NCBI GenBank assembly: GCA_043806395.1
Contig: JAZDHC010000039.1
Location: 1 to 42,945 of the forward strand
Origin: Candidatus Desantisbacteria bacterium
GTDB lineage: Bacteria; UBA9089; CG2-30-40-21
DNA: 42,945 bases
Direction of reading: 5' to 3'
A program made the translations under genes and the position numbers. Below, one piece after another: positions 10,914 to 37,770 of the stretch. Position 1 is the stretch's first letter. Every line of letters starts with the position of its first letter. Under the pieces are notes generated by a model. It searched no databases, had not been told where the DNA came from, and saw nothing but the letters and a program-made list of their open reading frames with translations.

Positions 10914-11438
10914 TTACACCTTTTCTACTTGATAAAATTCAACCTCAACAGGGGTAGCCCTACCAAGGATATTCATCATTATCCGCAATTTTGCATGTTT
11001 TGCGTCTATCTCACCCACTGTCCCAATAAAGTCCTTAAATGGACCATCAATTATCCTGACTGGCTCATCTTTCTGGAATTGTATACGAGGTTTGAGCCTT
11101 GGAGCACCAGCAGAAATCTGTTTCAAGATAGCATCTACCTCTGCCTGAGCCAAGGGGTAAGGTTTGTTTTTGTCACCCACAAACCCAAAAATTCCTGGTG
11201 TATGCTTAATCACATACCATGTATCATCTGACATCTCCATCTCTATCAGTATATAACCAGGAAAAAATTTCTTGGCTACAGTTTTCTTTTTCCCACCCTT
11301 TACCTCTGTAACTTCTATGGTAGGAATAACTATCTGAGAGACCTTGTCAGATAAATTCATAGCTTCAAGCCTATTTTCCAGATTAAGCTTTACCTTATTT
11401 TCATATCCTGAATATGTATGAATTACATACCATTCCAT
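10914..11438 (-). CDS. nusG: Transcription termination/antitermination factor NusG
   Basis: [16 protein letters not shown].. NGN domain and a KOW motif (..[15 protein letters not shown]..). Preferred ATG at 11438; the track TTG at 11453 adds 5 aa and overlaps secE. Confidence 0.93.
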
Positions 11439-11442
11439 ATTT

Positions 11443-11664
11443 TTATCTTCCAATTACAAAATTTAATAAAGCAATAAAAACCCAGTCAACGAGTCCAATA
11501 TAGGTAGTAATTATTGCTACACAAACGATTACTACCCCTGTTGCTCCCAGAATAACCTTTTTTGTAGGCCAAGAAACTTTGCCATTTTTAGGAGAAACTT
11601 CGACCCAAACTTCTCTTAAAAATTTTTTGGCTTTATTATGAATTTCTATTATTTGCTGTTTCAT
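11443..11664 (-). CDS. secE: Preprotein translocase subunit SecE
   Basis: 73 aa with a basic N-terminus plus a single C-terminal TM helix. Canonical position directly upstream of nusG. Confidence 0.85.
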   Translation of the reverse strand: MKQQIIEIHNKAKKFLREVWVEVSPKNGKVSWPTKKVILGATGVVIVCVAIITTYIGLVDWVFIALLNFVIGR

Positions 11665-11716
11665 CTTTTTCCTACGCTTCCAGAGACTTTATACACTAAC
11701 ACCTTAGACTATCGGA

Positions 11717-11850
11717 CACCTCTAAAAACTCACTGAAGCCACGCTGGCGATGTTGCAAAGCTGCTCAAAATGCTCATTTACCACATGTAAACTGCGCTTT
11801 TTCGCATCTTTGCGCCTTGCCATCATCACTTGATTGAGCTTTTAGAGGTG
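11717..11850. repeat. 134-bp imperfect palindrome between tRNA-Trp and secE
   Basis: Perfect 11-bp termini CACCTCTAAAA / TTTTAGAGGTG, with arms of ~65 nt roughly 70% complementary by eye. No ORF. Confidence 0.7.
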
Positions 11851-11905
11851 CCCTATCCTGAGTATATCAAGGAAGAAACTGAAGGCGAACAAATTACATA
11901 ATTAC

Positions 11906-11981
11906 TGGCAGGCCCGACAGGACTCGAACCTGCAACCCTCGGTTTTGGAGACCGATGCTCTACCAATTGAGCCACAGGCCT
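11906..11981 (-). tRNA. trnW: tRNA-Trp (anticodon CCA), CCA end encoded
   Basis: Reverse complement AGGCCTGTGGCTCAATTGGTAGAGCATCGGTCTCCAAAACCGAGGGTTGCAGGTTCGAGTCCTGTCGGGCCTGCCA folds by hand into a cloverleaf. It has a 7-bp acceptor, GCTC/GAGC D stem, TCGGT/ACCGA anticodon stem, CUCCAAA loop and TTCGAGT T-loop. Confidence 0.95.
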
Positions 11982-12132
11982 ACTTTGTTTCTTTATGAAC
12001 AGTATGTGCCTGACAAAATGGACAGTACTTCTTTAATTCCATTTTTGCAGTCTGTTTCTTTTTATTTCTTGTTGTATTATAATTTCGTCTCTTACAGTCT
12101 GAACATGCAAGAATAACCATTTCTCTTGACAA
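11980..12132 (-). CDS. rpmG: 50S ribosomal protein L33 (not in the ORF track, below the length cut-off)
   Basis: Hand translation: (M)[49 protein letters not shown], with CxxC..CxxC L33 zinc-ribbon spacing. TTG at 12132 has GAGGG 6 nt upstream; the alternative ATG is at 12120. Stop TAG at 11980-11982. Confidence 0.88.
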
Positions 12133-12155
12133 TTTTATCCCTCACTTAAATATTA

Positions 12156-12293
12156 CTACTTAGGTATATAGACTGTAGGTGTTTAGGTTGTAGGGTAAAG
12201 AAACAGAAACAGAAACACGGAATTATTAATGCAACACATCTGAAAAACTAACAGCCTACAGCCTAATTGTCTACAGCCTAACTACCTGAGTAG
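12156..12293. repeat. Long hairpin, CTGTAGG/CCTACAG-unit family, in the rpmG leader
   Basis: CTACTTAGGTATATAGACTGTAGGTGTTTAGGTTGTAGGGTAAAGAAACAGAAACAGAAACACGGAATTATT .. AACAGCCTACAGCCTAATTGTCTACAGCCTAACTACCTGAGTAG. Same family and loop core as 13816-13935 and the partial copy at 22345-22400. Confidence 0.8.
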
Positions 12294-12307
12294 TTACGAA
12301 AGATCAT

Positions 12308-12336
12308 AGTATATCATGAAATTCATACGATGTCAA
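12308..12336 (-). promoter_or_regulatory. Sigma-70-type promoter upstream of rpmG / tRNA-Trp / secE
   Basis: Minus strand reads TTGACA - 17 nt - TATACT. Confidence 0.55.
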
Positions 12337-12376
12337 GATATATTTTGCAACCCTTCAGCATTTTATATCAAATGCA

Positions 12377-13099
12377 CTACATCTCTGTTAATCTAATCTT
12401 TCCCCAAACACCCATCTTATCATCTTTAATAATCACAACACCCAAAACACCATCAATTTCTTGTACACGACTTAATCCTTCAGGGATATCTGCATGTGTT
12501 TGAATAATATTGCCTATTTTTGTGGCTACAGCATCAGCCAATGGGGTAGATTCAGATACGACTACACAGGCATCAGCCTTTCCAAAACTGATAGAATGAC
12601 CAACCGTACCTGAGGATGTACAAACACCCCATCTGCCTGGTTCAAGTAAAATCGCCATCCTTCCAGAAAGCACGGATGAACCAGCTAATATCCCAATCTT
12701 TCTTGATATGCTTGTATTCAGAAAGATATCCCCACCATTTTCAACAATGATGTCCTCAGAAAAGGCTAATAAATCCATTCCTACAGCATCAGCAACAACC
12801 CCGGCTACAGCAGCCATGGGACCAACCCCTGCCATTGCTGAGGCATCACTCATTTGACGAATAATCAATGGTGCTTTCCCTGAAACCAGATATGGAGAAA
12901 AGGTATGACCAAATTCAGGACACTGTTGGATATATCTTTTAATGGTTAAATAATGCCTTTTCAGAGAATCATATGCCTGTTTTTCAAGCATGGTTCTGGC
13001 TGAAATAAAAAGATCACTCTCAAAATAAACTACCCTGAAACTAATTAATGAGGTGTCTTTTCTTAAAAAATCCTGACGGTACTTCCTCTCCTCATACAC
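12377..13099 (-). CDS. UPF0280 family protein (ApbE-like fold)
   Basis: 240 aa. The motifs ..ASAMAGVGPMAAVAGVVADAVG.., ..IVENGGDIF.. and ..TSSGTVGHSISFGKADA.. fit my recollection of the UPF0280 family. Not verified by search. Confidence 0.6.
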   Translation of the reverse strand: MYEERKYRQDFLRKDTSLISFRVVYFESDLFISARTMLEKQAYDSLKRHYLTIKRYIQQCPEFGHTFSPYLVSGKAPLIIRQMSDASAMAGVGPMAAVAGVVADAVGMDLLAFSEDIIVENGGDIFLNTSISRKIGILAGSSVLSGRMAILLEPGRWGVCTSSGTVGHSISFGKADACVVVSESTPLADAVATKIGNIIQTHADIPEGLSRVQEIDGVLGVVIIKDDKMGVWGKIRLTEM

Positions 13100-13170
13100 T
13101 TACATTTCACCGGTATTATATTTGATGAAAAAAATAACCTCATTTTCCGTAAGAAAAGAAGTCGATATTA

Positions 13171-13199
13171 ATCATATCATACTATCTTGCTTTTGTCAA
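13171..13199 (-). promoter_or_regulatory. Sigma-70-type promoter for the UPF0280 gene
   Basis: Minus strand reads TTGACA - 17 nt - TATGAT, about 70 nt upstream of the start codon. Confidence 0.5.
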
Positions 13200-13290
13200 G
13201 CATTTTTTTACAAAAACTTCTGAATCCGTCGACAGGCTGTTACGGAATAGGAATTTGGCATGAAATACATACAATATGTTGTTCGTATTC

Positions 13291-13382
13291 TGTAGGGACA
13301 TCCCCTTGTGGGTGTCCGGTTACTTCAACCTTTTGCAACCATTCGTTGCATTTTACGGATAGGGACAAGCCCTGTCCCTACG
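13291..13382. repeat. Pair of REP-like units in inverted orientation
   Basis: TGTAGGGACATCCCCTTGTGGGTGTCC ... TAGGGACAAGCCCTGTCCCTAC with a small TGCAAC/GTTGCA hairpin between them. Confidence 0.7.
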
Positions 13383-13527
13383 ACAATAATAAATCATTGA
13401 TATGAATGTCAATAGGTAGTAACTTGGGTTAACTACTTAGGTTGCGTTATGTTACGCAACCTAAAGCTTACAGCTATCAAGTAAACACCAGATAACTGAG
13501 GCATTATCTAACATTCTTTGCTCTTCT

Positions 13528-13573
13528 CCCTACAGTCTAAATGCCTACAGCCTATCTACCTGATCAGTTACGA
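13528..13573. repeat. Solo right arm of the CTGTAGG/CCTACAG hairpin family
   Basis: CCCTACAGTCTAAATGCCTACAGCCTATCTACCTGATCAGTTACGA matches the right arms at 12250-12299 and 13905-13941, but no left arm is present. Confidence 0.5.
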
Positions 13574-13788
13574 TTATATCATAAATAATTCAAAAGTCAG
13601 CAGAAAATTCAATTTTACCACATTTTATTCTTGGAGAGTGTTACAATGTTGTGGTTTTTTAGGCATAAGAGGCAGCTCAGAATTATCATATACACATAAC
13701 ACAAACCAATAATATTACACTTGCTACTGGCTAACAAGCATGTAATCAATTGATGACTGGCTGATTACATCTTGAGGGTAAATTCTAT

Positions 13789-13817
13789 TTGACTTTAATT
13801 GTAAATTATGTTAAACT
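13789..13817 (+). promoter_or_regulatory. Sigma-70-type promoter for the CDF transporter / mqnA unit
   Basis: TTGACT - 17 nt - TAAACT. The -10 abuts or overlaps the first bases of the hairpin repeat at 13816. Confidence 0.5.
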
Positions 13818-13935
13818 ACTCAGGTGTTTAGACTGAAGGCTGTTAAACTGTAGGGTAAAGAAGCAGAAACAGGAGAATTATTGATGTAGTTCGCGTCTTT
13901 CAAACTAACAGCCTTCAGCCTAAACACCTGAGTAG
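13816..13935. repeat. Long hairpin, CTGTAGG/CCTACAG-unit family, in the CDF gene leader
   Basis: CTACTCAGGTGTTTAGACTGAAGGCTGTTAAACTGTAGGGTAAAGAAGCAGAAACAGGAGAATTATT .. AACAGCCTTCAGCCTAAACACCTGAGTAG. The 11-bp termini are perfect inverted repeats. Confidence 0.8.
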
Positions 13936-13970
13936 TTACGATATAATATCCTCCTGGAGGGCTAAAAGCG

Positions 13971-14930
13971 ATGTCTGAGCAAAAGCAAAAGACTACAGTC
14001 ATTATCTTTTCTGTGGTTTCTAACAGCATTCTGGTGATATTGAAACTATTGGTTGGTTGGCTAACCGGATCCATCTCTATTCTTTCCGAATCCGTTCATT
14101 CAGGAATCGATTTGCTGGCTGCTCTAATTGCTTTTTTTGCAGTGAGAAATTCTGGGAAACCTGCGGATGAAAAACATCCATTCGGACACGATAAGATTGA
14201 AAATATTTCAGGGTTTGTAGAAGCTATGCTTATCTTCATGGCAGCAGGATGGATTATTTATGAAGCCGTTAAAAAATTAATCAATCCTGCACCATTGGAG
14301 GCATTGGTCTGGGGTATGGCAGTGATGCTGTTCTCATCGGTGATAAATATCATTGTTTCGAAACGGCTCTTTAAGATTGGTCGTAAAACCGAGTCCATGG
14401 CGATTCAGGCAGATGCCTGTCATTTGCAGATGGATGTCTGGACTTCCATAGGGGTAATGACTGGGTTAGGACTCATCTGGGTAAGTGAGACTCTTTGGAA
14501 AGGTATGCATTTTCATTGGATTGACCCAATAGCTGCAATCGTAGTCGCTGTATTAATTATTAAGGCTGCCTATGACTTGACCCATCAATCAATTCATGAT
14601 CTGTTAGACAGCAGCCTGACAGCTGATGAGATCGAACACATTCGTATCAATATCATGGCGTATTGCCCCCAGATCCATGGTTTTCATCGACTCCGCACAC
14701 GAAAAGCAGGGAAGAATCGTTTTATAGAATTTCACTTGAAGGTAAAAAGCGATATGACGGTTGAGAAATCCCACCACTTAACAACTATAATTACTGAAAA
14801 AATTCAAGAACAAATACCATGTGCAAATGTCAATATTCACATTGAACCATGCAGACAGGAATATTGTAGTGATATCTGCATAAAAGGCTGCTTACTGACC
14901 CCGGAAAAGCGGGATAAAAAACATCTTTAG
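13971..14930 (+). CDS. Cation diffusion facilitator (CDF) family metal efflux transporter
   Basis: 319 aa with six predicted TM segments, HSGIDLL (TM2) and HLQMDVW (TM5) metal-site motifs and a C-terminal cytoplasmic domain. Confidence 0.85.
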   Translation: MSEQKQKTTVIIFSVVSNSILVILKLLVGWLTGSISILSESVHSGIDLLAALIAFFAVRNSGKPADEKHPFGHDKIENISGFVEAMLIFMAAGWIIYEAVKKLINPAPLEALVWGMAVMLFSSVINIIVSKRLFKIGRKTESMAIQADACHLQMDVWTSIGVMTGLGLIWVSETLWKGMHFHWIDPIAAIVVAVLIIKAAYDLTHQSIHDLLDSSLTADEIEHIRINIMAYCPQIHGFHRLRTRKAGKNRFIEFHLKVKSDMTVEKSHHLTTIITEKIQEQIPCANVNIHIEPCRQEYCSDICIKGCLLTPEKRDKKHL

Positions 14931-14954
14931 AAAACTCCTTCATAGAGAGGTACA

Positions 14955-15755
14955 ATGTCAACACGGCTTGGTTATTTAAGTTTTATCAATTGTCTGCCAG
15001 TGTATTATGGGATATTAGAGGGAAAAGTAAACATTGATGCACAGATAATCCCTGGGTTTCCAAACCAGTTAAATGCCTGGCTTGCTGCCGGAAATCTGGA
15101 CATAAGTCCTATTTCCTCTATTGAATATGCCCGGCACCATGATGAATATCTGCTGTTATCGGACATCTGCTTAAACTCTGAGGGTCCGGTCAAAAGTGTT
15201 ATTCTGGTAAGCAAATTTCCCATAGAAATGTTGGAAGGTAAATCTATTGCCCTGCCAACAACCAGTGCCACATCCCAAGTATTACTCAAGATACTTTTGT
15301 CCCATCTGAATGTTACCTATAAGGTGAAAGAACCATTCATTACTTCCATGCTTTCTGATTCAGATGCTGCCCTTTTGATTGGTGATGATGCCTTGCGAAT
15401 TGAGAAAACAAATGATTTATTTTTGTATGATCTGGCAGAATTATGGCAGAAACAAACAGGCTTTCCAGTTGTCTTTGCTGTGTGGGCAGTTAGAAAAGAT
15501 TATGCCAATCAATATCCTGAAAAAATTAGTGATATTGCTAATTCATTAAGAAAATCCTTAGATTATGGGCTATTTAATATTGATAAGATTATCGATGGGG
15601 TGTTGCCAGGGTTTCCAGGGGTAGACCTTCGGGATTATTTCAGTCTTTTGAGGTATGAATTTAATGCAAGGGCAAGGGAAGGGTTATTAGTATATTATGA
15701 TCATGCCTTCAGGATGGGGTTGTGTGAAAGGTGTGAGGAATTGGTATTTGCATAG
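14955..15755 (+). CDS. mqnA: Chorismate dehydratase MqnA-like protein (futalosine menaquinone pathway)
   Basis: 266 aa. The N-terminus ..LGYLSFINCLPVYYG.. and overall MqnA/MqnD-like pattern, with length typical of the family. Family call from memory. Confidence 0.65.
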   Translation: MSTRLGYLSFINCLPVYYGILEGKVNIDAQIIPGFPNQLNAWLAAGNLDISPISSIEYARHHDEYLLLSDICLNSEGPVKSVILVSKFPIEMLEGKSIALPTTSATSQVLLKILLSHLNVTYKVKEPFITSMLSDSDAALLIGDDALRIEKTNDLFLYDLAELWQKQTGFPVVFAVWAVRKDYANQYPEKISDIANSLRKSLDYGLFNIDKIIDGVLPGFPGVDLRDYFSLLRYEFNARAREGLLVYYDHAFRMGLCERCEELVFA

Positions 15756-15796
15756 GTTATCAGGGAAAGATTTGCCATGTGACAGAAATTCCACCC

Positions 15797-15820
15797 CTTA
15801 CCCCCGCCAGCGGGGGTAAG
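15797..15820. terminator. GC-rich stem-loop between convergent mqnA and the TPR gene
   Basis: CTTACCCCC-GCCAGC-GGGGGTAAG. On the minus strand it is followed by GGGGTGGAATTTCTGT. A related motif occurs at 146-190. Confidence 0.45.
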
Positions 15821-15849
15821 GAATCACCTGCTGGCGTAAAATAGTACAT

Positions 15850-17805
15850 TTATTTCGTAAGTTTCTTTATCCTTGCCTCTGCCTTTTTAGCATACTGATT
15901 TTCTGCAAAGTCCTTTAGAACTAATTGATAGATCTCAATTGCTTTATTTGAGTTATTTAGATTATCTTCCTGCAATTGCCCAGCACGATACAGTATTTCA
16001 GCTGCGTGAGAATCCTTTGGATATTTCTGATAAAGCTGAAAATAGCTATCTGCAGCCTGTTCATAATCACTTATCTTCTCATAGCATTCTCCTATGGTAA
16101 TAAGGGCTGATGGGGACAGGGGACTTTGAGGATATTCCTTAACTATCCTGTTGTATACAGAAATAACCTGCTCATATCGCTTAAGTTGTTCAAATATCTT
16201 GCCCAGTTCAAATAGTGCTGCAGGGGACTGTTCACTCTTGGAATATGCAGCAACTATTGTTTCATAGGCTTTAATGGCTTTATCATTATCCTTTAATTTA
16301 TCAGCCCAAATTCTGGCACTTTCTAATAGATATTTTGGGGCATTGGCATCATCTGGAAACCTTGCAACACCATCTTGATAAAAAGAAGCTGCATTAGGAT
16401 AATCTTTAACTATATCAAATATCCTTCCAATCTCAAAATATACCTGAGCAATTTGAGGTATATTTGGATATAAATAGATAACCTTTATATAGGCAGCTAT
16501 TGCCAGATACTCTTGTTGTTTCACCTTAAGAAGATTTTGAGCCTTTGTCTGATATGCATCAAAAGCCATTGGGGAATATGAATAACACCTCAAAAACTCA
16601 TCAAGCTCATGGTCAAGACAAGAATAGAGGGATGCATCTATAACAGGAAAAAGTTGTTTGATATAATTAAGCCACCTTTCTTCCTTTTTCTCACCCCCAA
16701 CTGAAATAGCTAATATTTTTTGAGAAAATTCCTTATCAATCTTTTTTAACTTTTCCAGATCCCTGATTCGACCTTTTCCTTTAGAGACAAAGGAACCATC
16801 AGGCCAGATACAAATCAATTTGGCATATGCAATTGCAGCCTCGTCAAACCTTTTTTCTTCTTCATATAATTGACCCACAAGATATTGAATCTCATCACTT
16901 TTTTCTAATTCCAGACAATTTGTGACATACATCGAAAGTTCCATGAGACAATAGGTACTTATCCCTTTTAATTTCATAGAATTGAGCCTTTTTACATAAT
17001 CTATATATTTTTGATTCTGCTCCTTTTTAATCTCTTCTGGCACGATCCCCTGTTTTAACTGGTTTAATTTCATCATTAATTGATTATTAAGAACAACCAT
17101 TTCTTCCTTTTTCTTATTTGTTTCTTGAATTGATTGCTCTAATGAATTCTTTTCCTTATCCAATTTTTCCTTCAAGGCAGTTGCTTGTGCCTCATCTGCC
17201 TTATATTTTTCAAGAACAACAGTTGTTTCCTTCATCTGATTTTCAAGTGTGGTTAACTGTCCCTTGACATTAGTTATGGTATTTTCTCTCTCTTTTAGGC
17301 TTGTCTTCAGGCTATCTATCTCGGCTTGTAATTTTACCTGCTGAGATTGTAAATCCTTTTGCCCAGTTGCAGATTGATCCTTTTCTTTGCTAAGCCCTTC
17401 TTTAAGGCTAACAATTTCAGCACTTTTATCCTTTAAGCCTTGAATCTTTTCTTTTAATTGTGTCTGCATATTTATGCCTTCATCCATTGCATCCTGAAGT
17501 TGTTTCTTAATTCCATCTATTTCTTTTTTTGCATTCTGCTGAATTTTAGCCTTTTCGTCCTCTTTTTGGTTAATACTTGTTGTTAATTGCTTAATATTCT
17601 CGGCATTTTTATCCCGTTCTACTACACAAGCATTATATTCCTTTGATAAAACATCCTTCTGGTCACTTATTTTTTTTAGCTTAACCTGAGATAGATTAAG
17701 CTCTGCCTGCAACTCATCAATACTCTTTTCATCCTCTGCCCCTGCCCATGAAGATGAAAACATACCAAAAAACATAACTAATACCAATAACCTGATCTTA
17801 ATCAT
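15850..17805 (-). CDS. Secreted coiled-coil + TPR repeat protein (YbgF/CpoB-like C-terminal half)
   Basis: Preferred ATG at 17805 (MIKIRLLVLVMFFGMFSSSWAGA.. signal peptide) with AGGAGG 7 nt upstream. ~250 aa of heptad-like K/E/Q-rich sequence, then TPR-like repeats. The track TTG at 17877 lies inside the predicted promoter. Confidence 0.75.
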   Translation of the reverse strand: MIKIRLLVLVMFFGMFSSSWAGAEDEKSIDELQAELNLSQVKLKKISDQKDVLSKEYNACVVERDKNAENIKQLTTSINQKEDEKAKIQQNAKKEIDGIKKQLQDAMDEGINMQTQLKEKIQGLKDKSAEIVSLKEGLSKEKDQSATGQKDLQSQQVKLQAEIDSLKTSLKERENTITNVKGQLTTLENQMKETTVVLEKYKADEAQATALKEKLDKEKNSLEQSIQETNKKKEEMVVLNNQLMMKLNQLKQGIVPEEIKKEQNQKYIDYVKRLNSMKLKGISTYCLMELSMYVTNCLELEKSDEIQYLVGQLYEEEKRFDEAAIAYAKLICIWPDGSFVSKGKGRIRDLEKLKKIDKEFSQKILAISVGGEKKEERWLNYIKQLFPVIDASLYSCLDHELDEFLRCYSYSPMAFDAYQTKAQNLLKVKQQEYLAIAAYIKVIYLYPNIPQIAQVYFEIGRIFDIVKDYPNAASFYQDGVARFPDDANAPKYLLESARIWADKLKDNDKAIKAYETIVAAYSKSEQSPAALFELGKIFEQLKRYEQVISVYNRIVKEYPQSPLSPSALITIGECYEKISDYEQAADSYFQLYQKYPKDSHAAEILYRAGQLQEDNLNNSNKAIEIYQLVLKDFAENQYAKKAEARIKKLTK

Positions 17806-33638: not shown

Positions 33639-34682
33639 CTACATCCCACCAAATGCCGAATCTAATTTTCTTGGATTCACCTTGAAGGTAATGGTATATG
33701 TAGCATATTCAGATCCAGCTTTTTTGGCAATAGCAACGGTTAGTGTGCCAGCTATCTGCTTGACACTACTTAGGTCAGTAGTCGGACTATTAGCAGCATC
33801 ATAATAACTCAAAGAAAAATCAGAAATGTTCGTTCCAATGATTGTTTTAGTAGTATCGTTTGCATCGTTTACTCTGCGAGTAATGGTACTGGTACCAAAT
33901 TCATAGCTGATGACATCACCTGCAATATACTCATCTGGATTTTTCTCATCCCCAGTGTCTAAAAGATCTCCATCCCCATTATTATCTCCAAGTATAGATT
34001 GCAAGCGATTATCTATGCCTGGATTAATAAGTATTGATCCAATAGCTGAAGAAGATGTTCTAATATCATTTGATCCAGTCCTTACCACAGTTGAGATTGT
34101 GCCATCTGGTCCACAGATAATACGACCATAAAGTATATCATCTGTACCGGCTACTTCCACAATCTGTCCTGGATCTGTCTCCCTGGGATACAAATTATCT
34201 CCTGGCGTAGAGCGAAATTTTCCATCCTCTCCATGAATAATAAAAATACTTCTTACCCCTGTCGTTCCTATCTGAATATCTGAGATGGACTCACCTGAAT
34301 ACCATATGGAAGATGGAGCAGAATCACAGGCACCATCTCCCCCATCCTGAATGTACGCCTCTGTAGCAAATCTAATCTTATTTGAGGCAAGCGTTGGTGT
34401 TCCGCCAGGATTAGCAGGAAGAAGGATGCACATGTCCTGAAGTTCATTAAGTATTCCCTGCCATGTTACAGATTCCGTTCCTTTTTTTACCTTCAGGTGG
34501 GGGTCACCGGAGAGCAAATCTCTTGCACTTTGTTGTGCCTGCATATGGACATCACTTGAGAGCCACAATTTTGTAGCACCAATAAAGACAGAACCCATTA
34601 CCATGATTATAATACCTACTATCCCCATGGCAATAAGTATTTCTAAAAGAGTGAATCCTTTTTGATGTCGTTGCAGATTCAT
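33639..34682 (-). CDS. Large pseudopilin-like protein with type IV prepilin leader
   Basis: Preferred ATG at 34682: MNLQRHQKG|FTLLEILIAMGIVGIII (G-1, F+1, E+5) with GAGGT upstream. The C-terminal region has Asp/Gly-rich Ca-binding-like stretches (..DNNGDGDLLDTGDE..). Confidence 0.75.
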   Translation of the reverse strand: MNLQRHQKGFTLLEILIAMGIVGIIIMVMGSVFIGATKLWLSSDVHMQAQQSARDLLSGDPHLKVKKGTESVTWQGILNELQDMCILLPANPGGTPTLASNKIRFATEAYIQDGGDGACDSAPSSIWYSGESISDIQIGTTGVRSIFIIHGEDGKFRSTPGDNLYPRETDPGQIVEVAGTDDILYGRIICGPDGTISTVVRTGSNDIRTSSSAIGSILINPGIDNRLQSILGDNNGDGDLLDTGDEKNPDEYIAGDVISYEFGTSTITRRVNDANDTTKTIIGTNISDFSLSYYDAANSPTTDLSSVKQIAGTLTVAIAKKAGSEYATYTITFKVNPRKLDSAFGGM

Positions 34683-34778
34683 ATTTACCTCATCTTTGGT
34701 GATCGGTAATAGTGGCATAATGTCATAGGATAAGTACTTCCTACCTTATTACCCTATGACCTTATGACCTTTCCCCTC

Positions 34779-35762
34779 TCACGGTCTATCGGCAATAAAA
34801 ACACTCAATTCCCGCTTAAGGGGTGTAGTGCCCCATTCCATTTTAACAGTTGCCTTCAGATAATTATAATCAAGGGTATCAGAAAATGTTCCTTCAAATG
34901 TTGGCGGGTCATTACCATGTCCGATCTCTTTTATTTTTGTTATTGTTACTGTTCGGGTTGCTCCACCATTTATTGGGGTAGTTCCATTCCAACCATAGGG
35001 TGGCATATTTATCAGTTCTGAGTCTGTCCCTACCATAAGATTATCATAGGGCATACTCCTTATCTCTTCTAATTTTTTCTGACACAGTGTTATTGCCATC
35101 GTTGTTTCCCTTGTGTGAGGCTGGACAAGAGAGGATTGCTGAAATGCCTTTAAGATACATAAGATACTTATAGCAACTATTGCTGTAGCCACCAATATCT
35201 CTACTAAAGTTATCCCCTTTGAGGCAGTATGCCTATTTGTTGCTTTCTTATTTATTTTATTTATGGAATAGAAATAAAATAGCAAAGAGCCAATAGAAAG
35301 AAAGAGAAAAAGTCCTATAATTAACCAATCTTTCCATCCGGTTTTTTTAATCTCTATTTGTTCCTTAATACTTGATATTTCCCCTTTCTCTTGATTATTT
35401 GCAACTGATGTTTTTTGTTCTGGAGTAACTATGCCTGATACTCCAGGAACAGTCTGATTCTGTGTGTCTGAAGACACTCCTGCAGAAATATTTTTGTTAT
35501 CTAATGGTATTTTTGAAGAAATTTCCCTGTTTGTTTCCCCTATCATTCCTTCTGTCGTAACATTTCGTACCTCTTTTTTCATGTGTTTTGCTTTTTCTTT
35601 GTAATATTGTTCTTTAATTATCCTTTCCTTATCCTCTTGTTCTTCTTGAATCAATTTATCTATATCTTCAGGGGTAGCATTTTCTGGAATCCATCTGGCA
35701 TCAACAGATAATCCGGTAAAAAAGAGTGATAAAAATACAGCTACAAATATAATCTGCTTCAT
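34779..35762 (-). CDS. Fusion protein: signal peptide + K/E-rich extracytoplasmic region + TM + internal prepilin leader/pseudopilin module
   Basis: The N-terminus MKQIIFVAVFLSLFFTGLSVDA is a signal peptide, with a TM at residues ~146-166. Then ..NKINKKATNRHTASKG|ITLVEILVATAIVAISIL (G183|I184, E+5). No ATG/GTG/TTG lies between the TM and the pilin motif. Confidence 0.7.
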   Translation of the reverse strand: MKQIIFVAVFLSLFFTGLSVDARWIPENATPEDIDKLIQEEQEDKERIIKEQYYKEKAKHMKKEVRNVTTEGMIGETNREISSKIPLDNKNISAGVSSDTQNQTVPGVSGIVTPEQKTSVANNQEKGEISSIKEQIEIKKTGWKDWLIIGLFLFLSIGSLLFYFYSINKINKKATNRHTASKGITLVEILVATAIVAISILCILKAFQQSSLVQPHTRETTMAITLCQKKLEEIRSMPYDNLMVGTDSELINMPPYGWNGTTPINGGATRTVTITKIKEIGHGNDPPTFEGTFSDTLDYNYLKATVKMEWGTTPLKRELSVFIADRP

Positions 35763-35767
35763 TTTTT

Positions 35768-37720
35768 CTAACGAACCTCCTTCCAGCTAATTACCTTTTG
35801 CAATTTCCCCAATGTCTCACTCCCCGCTACTATAGAAACTGAGCCTGGTGGGAAGAGATAGATTGGAAAATTTGGATTCTGCCGGTAGTTACTATGGTAT
35901 CGAGTATCCTGTTTTAGGTCTAATATTCCACCGTAGCAAATTGCCTCATCCTTGCTGATAAGGGAGCCGTGAAAATTGGGTGAATTAGCTACCCTTCCAG
36001 CAAGAAAATGCTGGGTATAGTAAACACCATCTATGGTACTAATCGTATTTGTAGCTGTTTGGCTATACTGGGTAATCGTCCCTATTCCTGTCGGATCCCA
36101 TAATGGACCAGTAGCAGTCCCTGGTTTTCTGAGTCCCTCAAAGAAGGTTGTTAATGTGCCAGATGAACGAAAAATACTTCCGGTAACAGTTACATCCGTC
36201 CATGTATAGGTACCATCGAAAGATTTATCTCCATCAAGGTCCTCTGTAGTTGGCTCAAAGACGCCATTTCCTTCTGTTGGATCTGTCCAAGTACCATTCG
36301 GTGTACCATCATTTATATGGACATTTGTATTTGGTATGCCATCTGCCCCAACATCCTCACTTCCCATGCCCTTTCTCTTAGGATTATCAAAAAGCCATTC
36401 ATCTGCTATCCAGTTACTTGATGAATAATTTCCATAAACCAACCCACCCTTTGCAGACACTGATAAAAGAGTCTTTGTGGAATTATTTCCAACCCAAGTA
36501 TCCATTATTGAGGTACCTGATTTACTGGGCAAGCCATCATCATTATTTGTTATGTTAAAGATACTATTGGCTGGATTTTTATAGTCAGTACCGGCAGATT
36601 GCTGCCATAGAGGATAGGTGCCCCAATTCGGTCCATTGACATATTGGATGTTTCCGGCAATGTATGCATTTCTACCCACATAGATTGATCCATACCGCGG
36701 ATGTTCTATATCACTCCCTGTAACACTAACAGAACCTTTTATTATCAGATTACCCTCAATGACCACACTATTCGTAATCTCAATAGGGGCATTCTTTGTG
36801 CCAATCAGGATCAGGCTTGTACTGCTCCCCTCGCCACTGCTGCCATCAAATACCCCATCACTTGTAAATGTCCGACTACCTATTCTAATCGTACCTGCGG
36901 GATGGTCATATTGATCGGTATCCGGGTTCCATCCCCGTGCAATTTCTTTATAATAGATCATATCTTGCAGGTTTGGGATATTTTCTTTTGGTAGATTTGA
37001 TCTTTTGTATGGTTCATTGTTATAGGCAGGGGGACCAGATCGTAATCCAGCCAGTCCATTTGGAGAGCGACCATTGTAATCTACTTCAAGCTGTGACTCT
37101 ACACTTCCATCAATAGTGAGAACACCAGTCCCTTGAATCTCAAAATTGCCGTTTGATTTCATACTGCCCCGACAGAATGCTACACCGTTACCATAATGCC
37201 ACCAACCCCAGTTGTTAATAAAATATGCGTAATCAAATACCCTTGGCATTTCCTCTATTGCAGTCCTGTTTACCTTAACAATGATCTCAATCTTCTTTGT
37301 AGAGATGGGGATTACTTTTCCCCCCTCTTCACGGCCGAGCATACCAGTGGCAATAATCTTTAGATTGGCGTAATATCCAGTAGCGTCTTCGCCACTAAAT
37401 ATGGTTTCAGGGTAGGAAACACGCATATATTGACCCGTACCTATCGGAATAAAGTTGGTATCCCCACCAAAATTAGTATTCCATGTAGCTGTACCTATAG
37501 CTGACAAATCTTCAGATTGGAGTTTCCAGAGAGCCCGCTCTGCTGCAGATTCAGCCACAGATAATGCTTCTATGCGACGAGTGTAGGAATTACCATGCTT
37601 CAACTCAGTTTGACTGGCAATAAAGAATAGACTTCCACCCATTACCAGAATAAGAAGAAGAAATAAGGTAAGTGCTAAAGCCATACCTTTTTGTCCTGAA
37701 AGAGGCTTTGTTGTATACAT
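35768..37720 (-). CDS. PilX-N-like large minor-pilin/pseudopilin-associated protein
   Basis: Preferred ATG at 37720: MYTTKPLSGQKGMALALTLFLLLILVMGG.. (PilX N-terminal type). A GGGGTGG SD lies upstream, and the predicted promoter lies downstream of the track TTG at 37753. Confidence 0.65.
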   Translation of the reverse strand: MYTTKPLSGQKGMALALTLFLLLILVMGGSLFFIASQTELKHGNSYTRRIEALSVAESAAERALWKLQSEDLSAIGTATWNTNFGGDTNFIPIGTGQYMRVSYPETIFSGEDATGYYANLKIIATGMLGREEGGKVIPISTKKIEIIVKVNRTAIEEMPRVFDYAYFINNWGWWHYGNGVAFCRGSMKSNGNFEIQGTGVLTIDGSVESQLEVDYNGRSPNGLAGLRSGPPAYNNEPYKRSNLPKENIPNLQDMIYYKEIARGWNPDTDQYDHPAGTIRIGSRTFTSDGVFDGSSGEGSSTSLILIGTKNAPIEITNSVVIEGNLIIKGSVSVTGSDIEHPRYGSIYVGRNAYIAGNIQYVNGPNWGTYPLWQQSAGTDYKNPANSIFNITNNDDGLPSKSGTSIMDTWVGNNSTKTLLSVSAKGGLVYGNYSSSNWIADEWLFDNPKRKGMGSEDVGADGIPNTNVHINDGTPNGTWTDPTEGNGVFEPTTEDLDGDKSFDGTYTWTDVTVTGSIFRSSGTLTTFFEGLRKPGTATGPLWDPTGIGTITQYSQTATNTISTIDGVYYTQHFLAGRVANSPNFHGSLISKDEAICYGGILDLKQDTRYHSNYRQNPNFPIYLFPPGSVSIVAGSETLGKLQKVISWKEVR

Positions 37721-37741
37721 TTTGACCACCCCCATAATCAA

Positions 37742-37770
37742 ATAATAACACAAATTCTCTCGTATGTCAA
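37742..37770 (-). promoter_or_regulatory. Sigma-70-type promoter for the pseudopilin gene set
   Basis: Minus strand reads TTGACA - 17 nt - TATTAT. The start codon at 37720 lies ~15 nt after the predicted start site. Confidence 0.5.

Follow-up and report, generated by a model that had tools for sequence, protein, structure and literature searches.

A PilV/GspI-like minor pilin apparently fused to a membrane-protein partner at a prepilin-peptidase site in Candidatus Desantisbacteria

The programs used for finding pilins, and the accepted model of how prepilin peptidase acts, rest on a short, free and cytoplasmic N-terminal leader. The subject of this report is a single open reading frame (ORF) encoding 327 amino acids (aa) in a 42,945-nt stretch of DNA from the uncultured Candidatus Desantisbacteria (contig JAZDHC010000039.1 of assembly GCA_043806395.1; the whole stretch is referred to below as the window), and its arrangement is that of a type IV minor pilin precursor that runs contrary to this textbook definition. 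The systems that it most resembles are the minor pilins GspI and PilV, which belong to the tip complexes GspI-J-K and PilV-W-X. The likeness extends to the Gly at position -1, the Glu at position +5, the mature length of ~140 aa and the placement of the gene between a K/X-like and a J/W-like gene. The differences are that the motif, which in GspI and PilV follows a leader of 5-30 aa, here comes after a signal peptide, an extracytoplasmic domain and a membrane helix, and that the window protein falls under the curated profile cut-offs and has no fold match to solved pilins.

Long leaders are known from the type IVb pilins and from the type IVa pilins of Streptococcus sanguinis; they are hydrophilic, cytoplasmic and variable in length, a flexibility that prepilin peptidases tolerate, and the long ones are referred to only as 'much longer' or 'very long' (PMC10191384). 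A prepilin of this kind is encoded in the genome studied here, namely an I-like pilin with a 28-aa hydrophilic leader (locus L028). Long leaders of the type IVb style comprise about 15-30 aa. Whereas all such leaders are free, hydrophilic and cytoplasmic, the 'leader' of the window protein amounts to 183 aa, is predicted to span the membrane twice and has an independent protein as its homologue.

Of the published proteins with a very long pre-sequence, the closest is GspG of the mitochondrial type II secretion system (miT2SS) of Naegleria, jakobids and malawimonads. In NgGspG1, a non-homologous N-terminal extension of about 160 aa precedes the conserved processing site and Glu+5, and only peptides from downstream of the processing site were detected (PMC8134430, PMC10128026). 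The long extension in front of a conserved site is shared with the window protein, but the miT2SS protein is eukaryotic, its extension targets an organelle, no prepilin peptidase is present and it belongs to the major, not the minor, pseudopilins. Modular pilins such as PilB and PilC of S. sanguinis also combine a pilin module with another functional module in one polypeptide; the extra module is placed at the C-terminus and stays on the filament pilin (PMC8179133, PMC9934059). In contrast, the extra module of the window protein is N-terminal, lies beyond the cleavage site and would part from the pilin. Finally, the arrangement is akin to Rosetta-stone fusions and polyprotein precursors, in that adjacent and translationally coupled genes have become one polypeptide with a protease site at the seam.

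Our best explanation for the ORF, which we consider probable, is that two adjacent genes of a minor-pilin (pilus-tip) cassette were fused in this particular lineage and that their joint product would be cut by the prepilin peptidase PilD into two proteins. The literature searched contained no report of prepilin peptidase as a polyprotein-processing enzyme, no publication on Desantisbacteria and pili, and no description of a bacterial prepilin with a membrane-protein pro-region, in line with the initial annotation of this DNA, which knew of none. If the explanation is true, the known substrates of prepilin peptidases would be widened to loops tethered at both ends, the annotation of such genes as hypothetical proteins only would be accounted for, and an accessory protein that probably works with a PilV/GspI-like subunit in filament priming would be flagged by Rosetta-stone logic.

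The fused reading frame and its pilin part

The ORF and its parts are given below by window position; here and in the text, a slash within a motif marks a predicted cleavage site.

34779..35762, minus strand: whole fused ORF, a putative partner membrane protein joined to a PilV/GspI-like prepilin; 327 aa plus stop, ATG start
35776-35784, minus strand: Shine-Dalgarno GGAAGGAGG, 13 nt 5' of the ATG, read from the sequence
35697..35762, minus strand: predicted Sec-type signal peptide MKQIIFVAVFLSLFFTGLSVDA, aa 1-22 (hydropathy; -3/-1 pattern kept in alignment A1)
35556..35696, minus strand: N-terminal motif (R/K)WIPENATPEDV followed by a K/E-rich helix, aa 23-69 (alignment A1, AF2 helix)
35340..35555, minus strand: low-complexity linker rich in S/T/Q/G, aa 70-141 (in-frame indels in A1; pLDDT <50)
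35265..35339, minus strand: GWKDW motif and membrane helix, predicted to run from outside to inside, aa 142-166 (hydropathy, alignment)
35214..35264, minus strand: basic loop INKINKKATNRHTASKG, predicted to be cytoplasmic, aa 167-183, ending in an invariant S-K-G
35127..35213, minus strand: hydrophobic helix alpha1-N of the pilin, ITLVEILVATAIV..., aa 184-212, with Glu at +5 (matches to Pfam N_methyl and NCBIfam gspI/PilV)
34782..35126, minus strand: pilin head, comprising the rest of alpha1 and five beta strands, aa 213-327 (AF2 model of aa 168-327; homology to stand-alone pilins)

The initial annotation had described a signal peptide, a K/E-rich segment, a transmembrane helix, a prepilin site with Glu at +5 and a pilin-like domain of ~144 aa, all of which were borne out by hydropathy analysis and profile matches. 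Kyte-Doolittle analysis located three hydrophobic segments at aa 1-22, 143-168 and 183-212. The K/E-rich region between the first two (120 aa, aa 23-142) contains 19 K/R vs 22 D/E, and the loop at aa 167-183 contains 5 K/R and no D/E for a net charge of +5. Class III signal peptides have Gly or Ala at -1 and then a stretch of about 20 hydrophobic residues, mostly with Glu at +5. A prepilin motif is present as ..TASKG/ITLVEILVATAIV.. with the Glu at +5 and with the class III signature SKG/ITLVEILVATAIVAISILCIL. The predicted prepilin-peptidase cut, G183/I184, falls between nt 35214 and 35213. Type IV pilins are recognized by a short leader at the N-terminus; in the window protein the motif begins at residue 181, behind two hydrophobic segments and the 120-aa predicted extracytoplasmic region. 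Hydropathy and charge fit an out/in/out topology, which agrees with the self-consistent path of the initial annotation: out, back in through the membrane helix, a basic leader and the pilin helix.

The signal peptide was assigned by the -3/-1 rule only (V-D-A/R). The V-D-A/R-W pattern fits signal peptidase I (SPase I) and is kept in all homologues in alignment A1, and the SPase I site is probably VDA/RW. A lipoprotein signal was rejected, as no Cys follows the signal peptide in this alignment. The N-terminal motif is near-invariant in A1, and the segment that it opens (aa 23-69) is predicted to be extracytoplasmic; the AF2 model shows a helix at aa 31-69, with a block-mean pLDDT of 76-83 across aa 31-60. 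The linker at aa 70-141 varies in length and is predicted to be disordered, and in the membrane-helix region D145, W146, I149, F152, L160 and Y163 are invariant. The dN/dS estimates, noisy on such short segments, were below 1 for the N-terminal motif and the membrane helix and about 0.3-1.4 for the linker; they show no more than non-neutral evolution of the N-terminal motif and the anchor.

That the gene is a single ORF rather than an assembly fusion, as the initial annotation had read it, is evidenced by the same frame in three independent assemblies and in all orthologues of the genus. Independent assemblies of two different public runs (Logan) each contain a contig that encodes the exact protein, and the 984 nt of the gene are 100% identical across the window and both Logan assemblies, the flanks being 99.93-99.96% identical. 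Orthologues with the same fusion, which the initial annotation had suggested looking for, turned up in the other five species of the genus as well as in 13 protein clusters, and an orthologue split into two genes, which would have spoken against its reading had it been the rule, was seen in the sister family only. All five other species of the genus in our genome collection gave a full-length match of 52-72% identity with no stop, each being a single ORF of about 320-360 aa between the same neighbours. In the protein database, 13 clusters with the fused architecture were 44-72% identical, and several carried the label Candidatus Desantisbacteria. An exhaustive search of 1.84 billion representatives added P0014, a protein of 325 aa that is 38% identical and still fused; in this search the fused architecture was confined to this family (6 representatives) and the other matches were ordinary short pilins. 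With P0014 included, identity over the metagenomic homologues ranged from 38 to 77%. Homologues differed in length through in-frame indels, located in the low-complexity part and the loop. When either half, the N-terminal one or the pilin, served as query in a word-index search, only members of the same family came back. Conservation in 13 protein clusters and six genomes indicates that the fused architecture exceeds chance.

Among the short PilV-like pilins from other, apparently high-GC lineages, six (P0021, P0039, P0050, P0071, P0076 and P0088) had been called with hydrophilic N-terminal extensions of 35-70 aa that lack a membrane helix. These extensions are probably miscalled starts and were not counted.

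Several profiles recognized the pilin part. Pfam N_methyl (PF07963) matched aa 181-200 (E 4e-4; 20.3 bits vs a cut-off of 21.2), and TIGR02532 gave 13.5 bits vs a cut-off of 16.3. The best matches were NCBIfam gspI (TIGR01707; aa 183-238, E 3.6e-7, 30.6 bits vs a cut-off of 44.35), then PilV (TIGR02523; 20.4 bits vs a cut-off of 52.2) and ComGE, all three under the curated cut-offs; the gspI and PilV matches spanned only the first ~58 residues of the pilin part. Within the family, N_methyl matches at E <= 0.001 were obtained for 8 of 13 members, the divergent homologue P0014 clears the N_methyl cut-off with 23.2 bits (aa 176-196), and four homologues are named prepilin-type cleavage/methylation proteins by NCBI. 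Since size, position in the cassette and all of the best profile matches agree, and since the equivalog cut-offs were not reached, the C-terminal domain appears best called PilV/GspI-like rather than a member of the GspI or PilV equivalogs.

In the lollipop fold of type IV pilins, a long N-terminal helix is packed against an antiparallel beta sheet. The AF2 model of aa 168-327 (mean pLDDT 74) displayed a helix followed by five strands; a Foldseek search with it against the PDB gave no match at E <= 0.001, nor did a PDB profile search with alignment A1 give a match. The AF2 model of the full-length protein was of poor quality (pLDDT 55), and its matches in Foldseek were meaningless. The pilin half is homologous to stand-alone pilins of 136-142 aa from the sister family, with E values from 1.9e-10 to 5.1e-8.

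Separate genes in the sister family and the origin of the fusion

In the window the gene order is K-like, fused ORF, J-like. The sister family, which falls in the same taxonomic order, has this arrangement in 6/6 genomes, as a colinear cassette of four genes encoding a K-like protein, a partner (175-211 aa), a pilin (136-142 aa) and a J-like pilin (~360 aa). The K-like protein of the sister family is large and ends in ..SWKEV, and the stand-alone pilins begin as in the example MEKRKSEFG/VSLVELMIA. In each of these six genomes the partner and pilin genes share an overlap of 20 nt, and the pilin is read in the +1 frame.

The partner is a type-I membrane protein of which the parts are as follows: (i) a signal peptide, (ii) a G-I-P-L-E..T-P-x-E sequence at the mature N-terminus, (iii) a K/E-rich helix, (iv) a Pro/Glu/Lys-rich linker, (v) a G-(I/L)-V-P-G-V motif, (vi) a membrane helix and (vii) a short basic tail. 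This order is also that of residues 1-173 of the window protein, and the N-terminal motif and helix of aa 23-69 recur in the separate partner proteins. A comparison of the partner with the N-terminal half of the window protein by hhalign gave a probability of 91% and an E value of 1.1e-6 over 156 collinear columns. A profile covering both forms of the partner was run on 201 genomes. It matched 12 of them, exactly once each, and all 12 belong to these two families; neither the 13 remaining genomes of the phylum nor the 176 from other phyla gave a match. Pfam searches with the N-terminal half and with the split partner proteins returned sub-threshold noise only.

Taken with the shared gene order, these results indicate that the ORF is a gene fusion whose seam is a prepilin-peptidase site, an origin that goes beyond the reading of the initial annotation. 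Most simply, the fusion would be derived and specific to this genus-level lineage and the split form ancestral, because stand-alone pilins are the universal state. A single-base indel within the 20-nt overlap is enough to fuse partner and pilin. The tail of the partner and the leader of the pilin in the sister family would together give a loop of 17 residues, as long as that of the window protein, and aa 167-183 thus appear to consist of the C-terminal tail of the partner and the former leader of the pilin. Because the genes have been fused, Rosetta-stone logic suggests that partner and pilin act together, probably via their membrane helices. That the N-terminal part of the partner serves as a periplasmic stalk or tether anchored beside the pilin is a reasonable guess, no more.

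Probable cleavage at the seam and the competing explanations

In a 13-sequence alignment, S181, K182, G183, T185, L186, E188, I189, A192 and T193 are invariant. The remainder of the loop varies across homologues both in sequence and in length (17 to 31 residues), and P0014, at 38% identity, retains KQKG/ATLVEL. The genome encodes one bifunctional PilD of 263 aa on contig C188, with an N-terminal domain of the methylase type (A24_N_bact, 118.7 bits) and the A24 peptidase domain (Peptidase_A24, 57.5 bits), along with many PilB/GspE-type ATPases and two secretins. Invariance of the site residues in a variable loop, together with the presence of PilD, makes cleavage likely. The loop lies between a helix predicted to run from outside to inside and a pilin helix predicted to run from inside to outside, which would place the site on the cytoplasmic face of the membrane, where prepilin peptidases act (PMC10191384). 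Because the seam coincides with the prepilin-peptidase site, one cut would regenerate the two proteins that the relatives make separately. The split form in the sister family hence strengthens the two-product interpretation offered by the initial annotation, as the products predicted from a cut at G183/I184 match proteins that are made separately there.

The following sequence of events is proposed. The N-terminal part of the fused protein would be exported by the Sec system, and the anchor helix and the pilin helix would form a hairpin with the 17-residue basic loop in the cytoplasm. PilD would then cut after Gly183 and methylate Ile184, restoring both ancestral proteins in a 1:1 ratio and adjacent to each other in the membrane. 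One product would be the anchored partner (about aa 23-183); the other would be the mature minor pilin, which would join the K-like and J-like proteins next to it in the priming of a type IV filament. More tentatively, and with less confidence than we place in the fusion and its cleavage, we suggest that prepilin peptidase may serve here as a polyprotein-splitting enzyme, cutting a loop between two membrane helices and so releasing a tip pilin and an order-specific accessory protein, the latter consisting of a periplasmic K/E-rich stalk with a C-terminal anchor that would pair with the PilV/GspI-like pilin via its membrane helix. By way of analogy only, cleavage of a loop between membrane helices is known from GxGD-type aspartyl proteases such as presenilin.

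The following points weigh against this interpretation. The N_methyl and TIGR02532 scores of the window protein are slightly under the curated cut-offs. Neither AF2 model was tied to a solved pilin by Foldseek. The homology between the fused and split forms of the partner amounts to 17-19% identity in compositionally biased sequence plus synteny, and on account of the low identity and the bias, synteny bears much of the weight. The partner is without a known family. Lastly, reviews portray leaders as free hydrophilic N-termini (PMC10191384), and no instance of a prepilin peptidase cutting a loop tethered at both ends was found in the literature searched.

The alternative that survives best, although we regard it as unlikely, is that the fusion is real and the protein remains uncleaved, with its pilin module tethered to the partner as a hairpin membrane protein. 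Such a module would be a fixed component of the membrane, serving, for instance, to dock or nucleate the K-like and J-like pilins, and would not enter the filament. The second membrane helix takes the place of the leader and could hinder access by PilD, free hydrophilic leaders are the only ones described in reviews, and a normal tip subunit could be supplied by the second, ordinary K-like and I-like pair of the genome (L028). Retention of the site is difficult to reconcile with this proposal: Gly-1, Glu+5 and five neighbouring residues are invariant over about 38-77% identity while the loop changes, and there is no evident reason to keep a charged Glu in the membrane helix of an uncleaved protein. 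Moreover, the sister family produces both parts as separate proteins.

It seems improbable that the protein is cleaved and its N-terminal 183 residues are a disposable or regulatory pro-region without a function after cleavage, one that, for example, delays release of the pilin. In favour of this, the middle 70 residues are disordered and evolve nearly neutrally, but 6/6 genomes of the sister family retain the same protein, encoded by a single-copy gene of its own, and conservation is strong in its N-terminal motif and GWKDW/anchor region.

That the ORF yields two proteins, the second from an internal translation start immediately ahead of the pilin motif, is very improbable, and the idea was rejected on codon evidence. 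The initial annotation had noted that no ATG, GTG or TTG occurs between the membrane helix and the pilin motif, and a codon listing agrees: the last such codon before the motif is the TTG at codon 160, in the membrane helix, codons 161-183 contain none, and the next canonical starts, at codons 190 and 191, lie past Glu+5. The closest orthologue (L002) likewise has none between the GWKDW motif and the cleavage site. Other orthologues do contain an occasional ATG or TTG, such as the ATG 22 codons before the cut site in L005 and L006 or a TTG or ATG within the membrane helix in some, but the position differs each time and none of these candidates has a purine-rich Shine-Dalgarno within 20 nt upstream. 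As there is no usable, conserved internal start, it appears that this genus can produce the pilin only within the long protein.

Least of all, a frameshift in assembly or sequencing, or a recent pseudogene-like accident in two overlapping genes, is suggested by the mere +1 frame offset within the 20-nt overlap in the sister family and is effectively refuted by the identity of three independent assemblies over the gene, by six species of the genus and divergent metagenomic clusters that stay in one frame with in-frame indels only, and by the (noisy) dN/dS below 1 of the N-terminal motif and the membrane helix.

The cassette and its surroundings

The fused ORF is flanked by two cassette genes whose products carry ordinary leaders ending in QKG, and both genes are syntenic in all relatives.

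35768..37753, minus strand: upstream cassette gene, PilX/GspK-like, 661 aa, with ..SGQKG/MALALTLFLL.. and no Glu at +5
33639..34718, minus strand: downstream cassette gene, PilW/GspJ-like pilin, 359 aa, beginning MNLQRHQKG/FTLLEILIA

The J-like pilin scored above the Pfam N_methyl cut-off (32.9 bits). For the 661-aa K-like protein, no Pfam or NCBIfam family was obtained at E <= 0.1; it has repetitive stretches, rich in G-x-I/V, that hint at a beta-solenoid, and its orthologues in the sister family are 629 aa or longer. The Shine-Dalgarno of the fused ORF sits within the final codons (..WKEV..) of the K-like gene. K-like proteins have a conserved C-terminus (..SWKEV.., or, in the paralogue, ..YKEVF) whose coding sequence, TGGAAGGAGGT, also provides the Shine-Dalgarno of the next gene; it is found at 35768-35790 of the window and at the equivalent gene ends in L002-L012 and L028. 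The C-terminal protein motif and the ribosome-binding site may therefore constrain each other.

The second pair of pilin genes in the same genome (contig C229, locus L028, 193-2025) is ordinary in that a 448-aa K-like gene is followed by the gene for a 161-aa I-like pilin, with no partner gene in between; the contig ends shortly after. The 28-aa leader of this I-like pilin (..RHRLEKG/VTLIEIL) was counted from the first ATG of its ORF.

In three sister-family loci (L009, L012 and L030) the cassette is followed by a T2SSF (PilC/GspF) platform gene. This link is lost in the genus of the window, where the cassette adjoins hslU and a gene of the Omp85 type. In L030 (G006:C256) the region concerned spans 11049-16164, and just upstream of the cassette in G006 is a gene for a 23S rRNA intervening-sequence protein (PF05635; L030 16733-17104). 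In the window, a gene for a Uma2-family endonuclease (PF05685; 33029-33604, minus strand) stands between the J-like pilin gene and a gene for a 1000-aa peptidase/Omp85 protein. It looks like a recent insertion, since in the closest relative (G004, locus L002) the Omp85-type gene directly follows the J-like gene.

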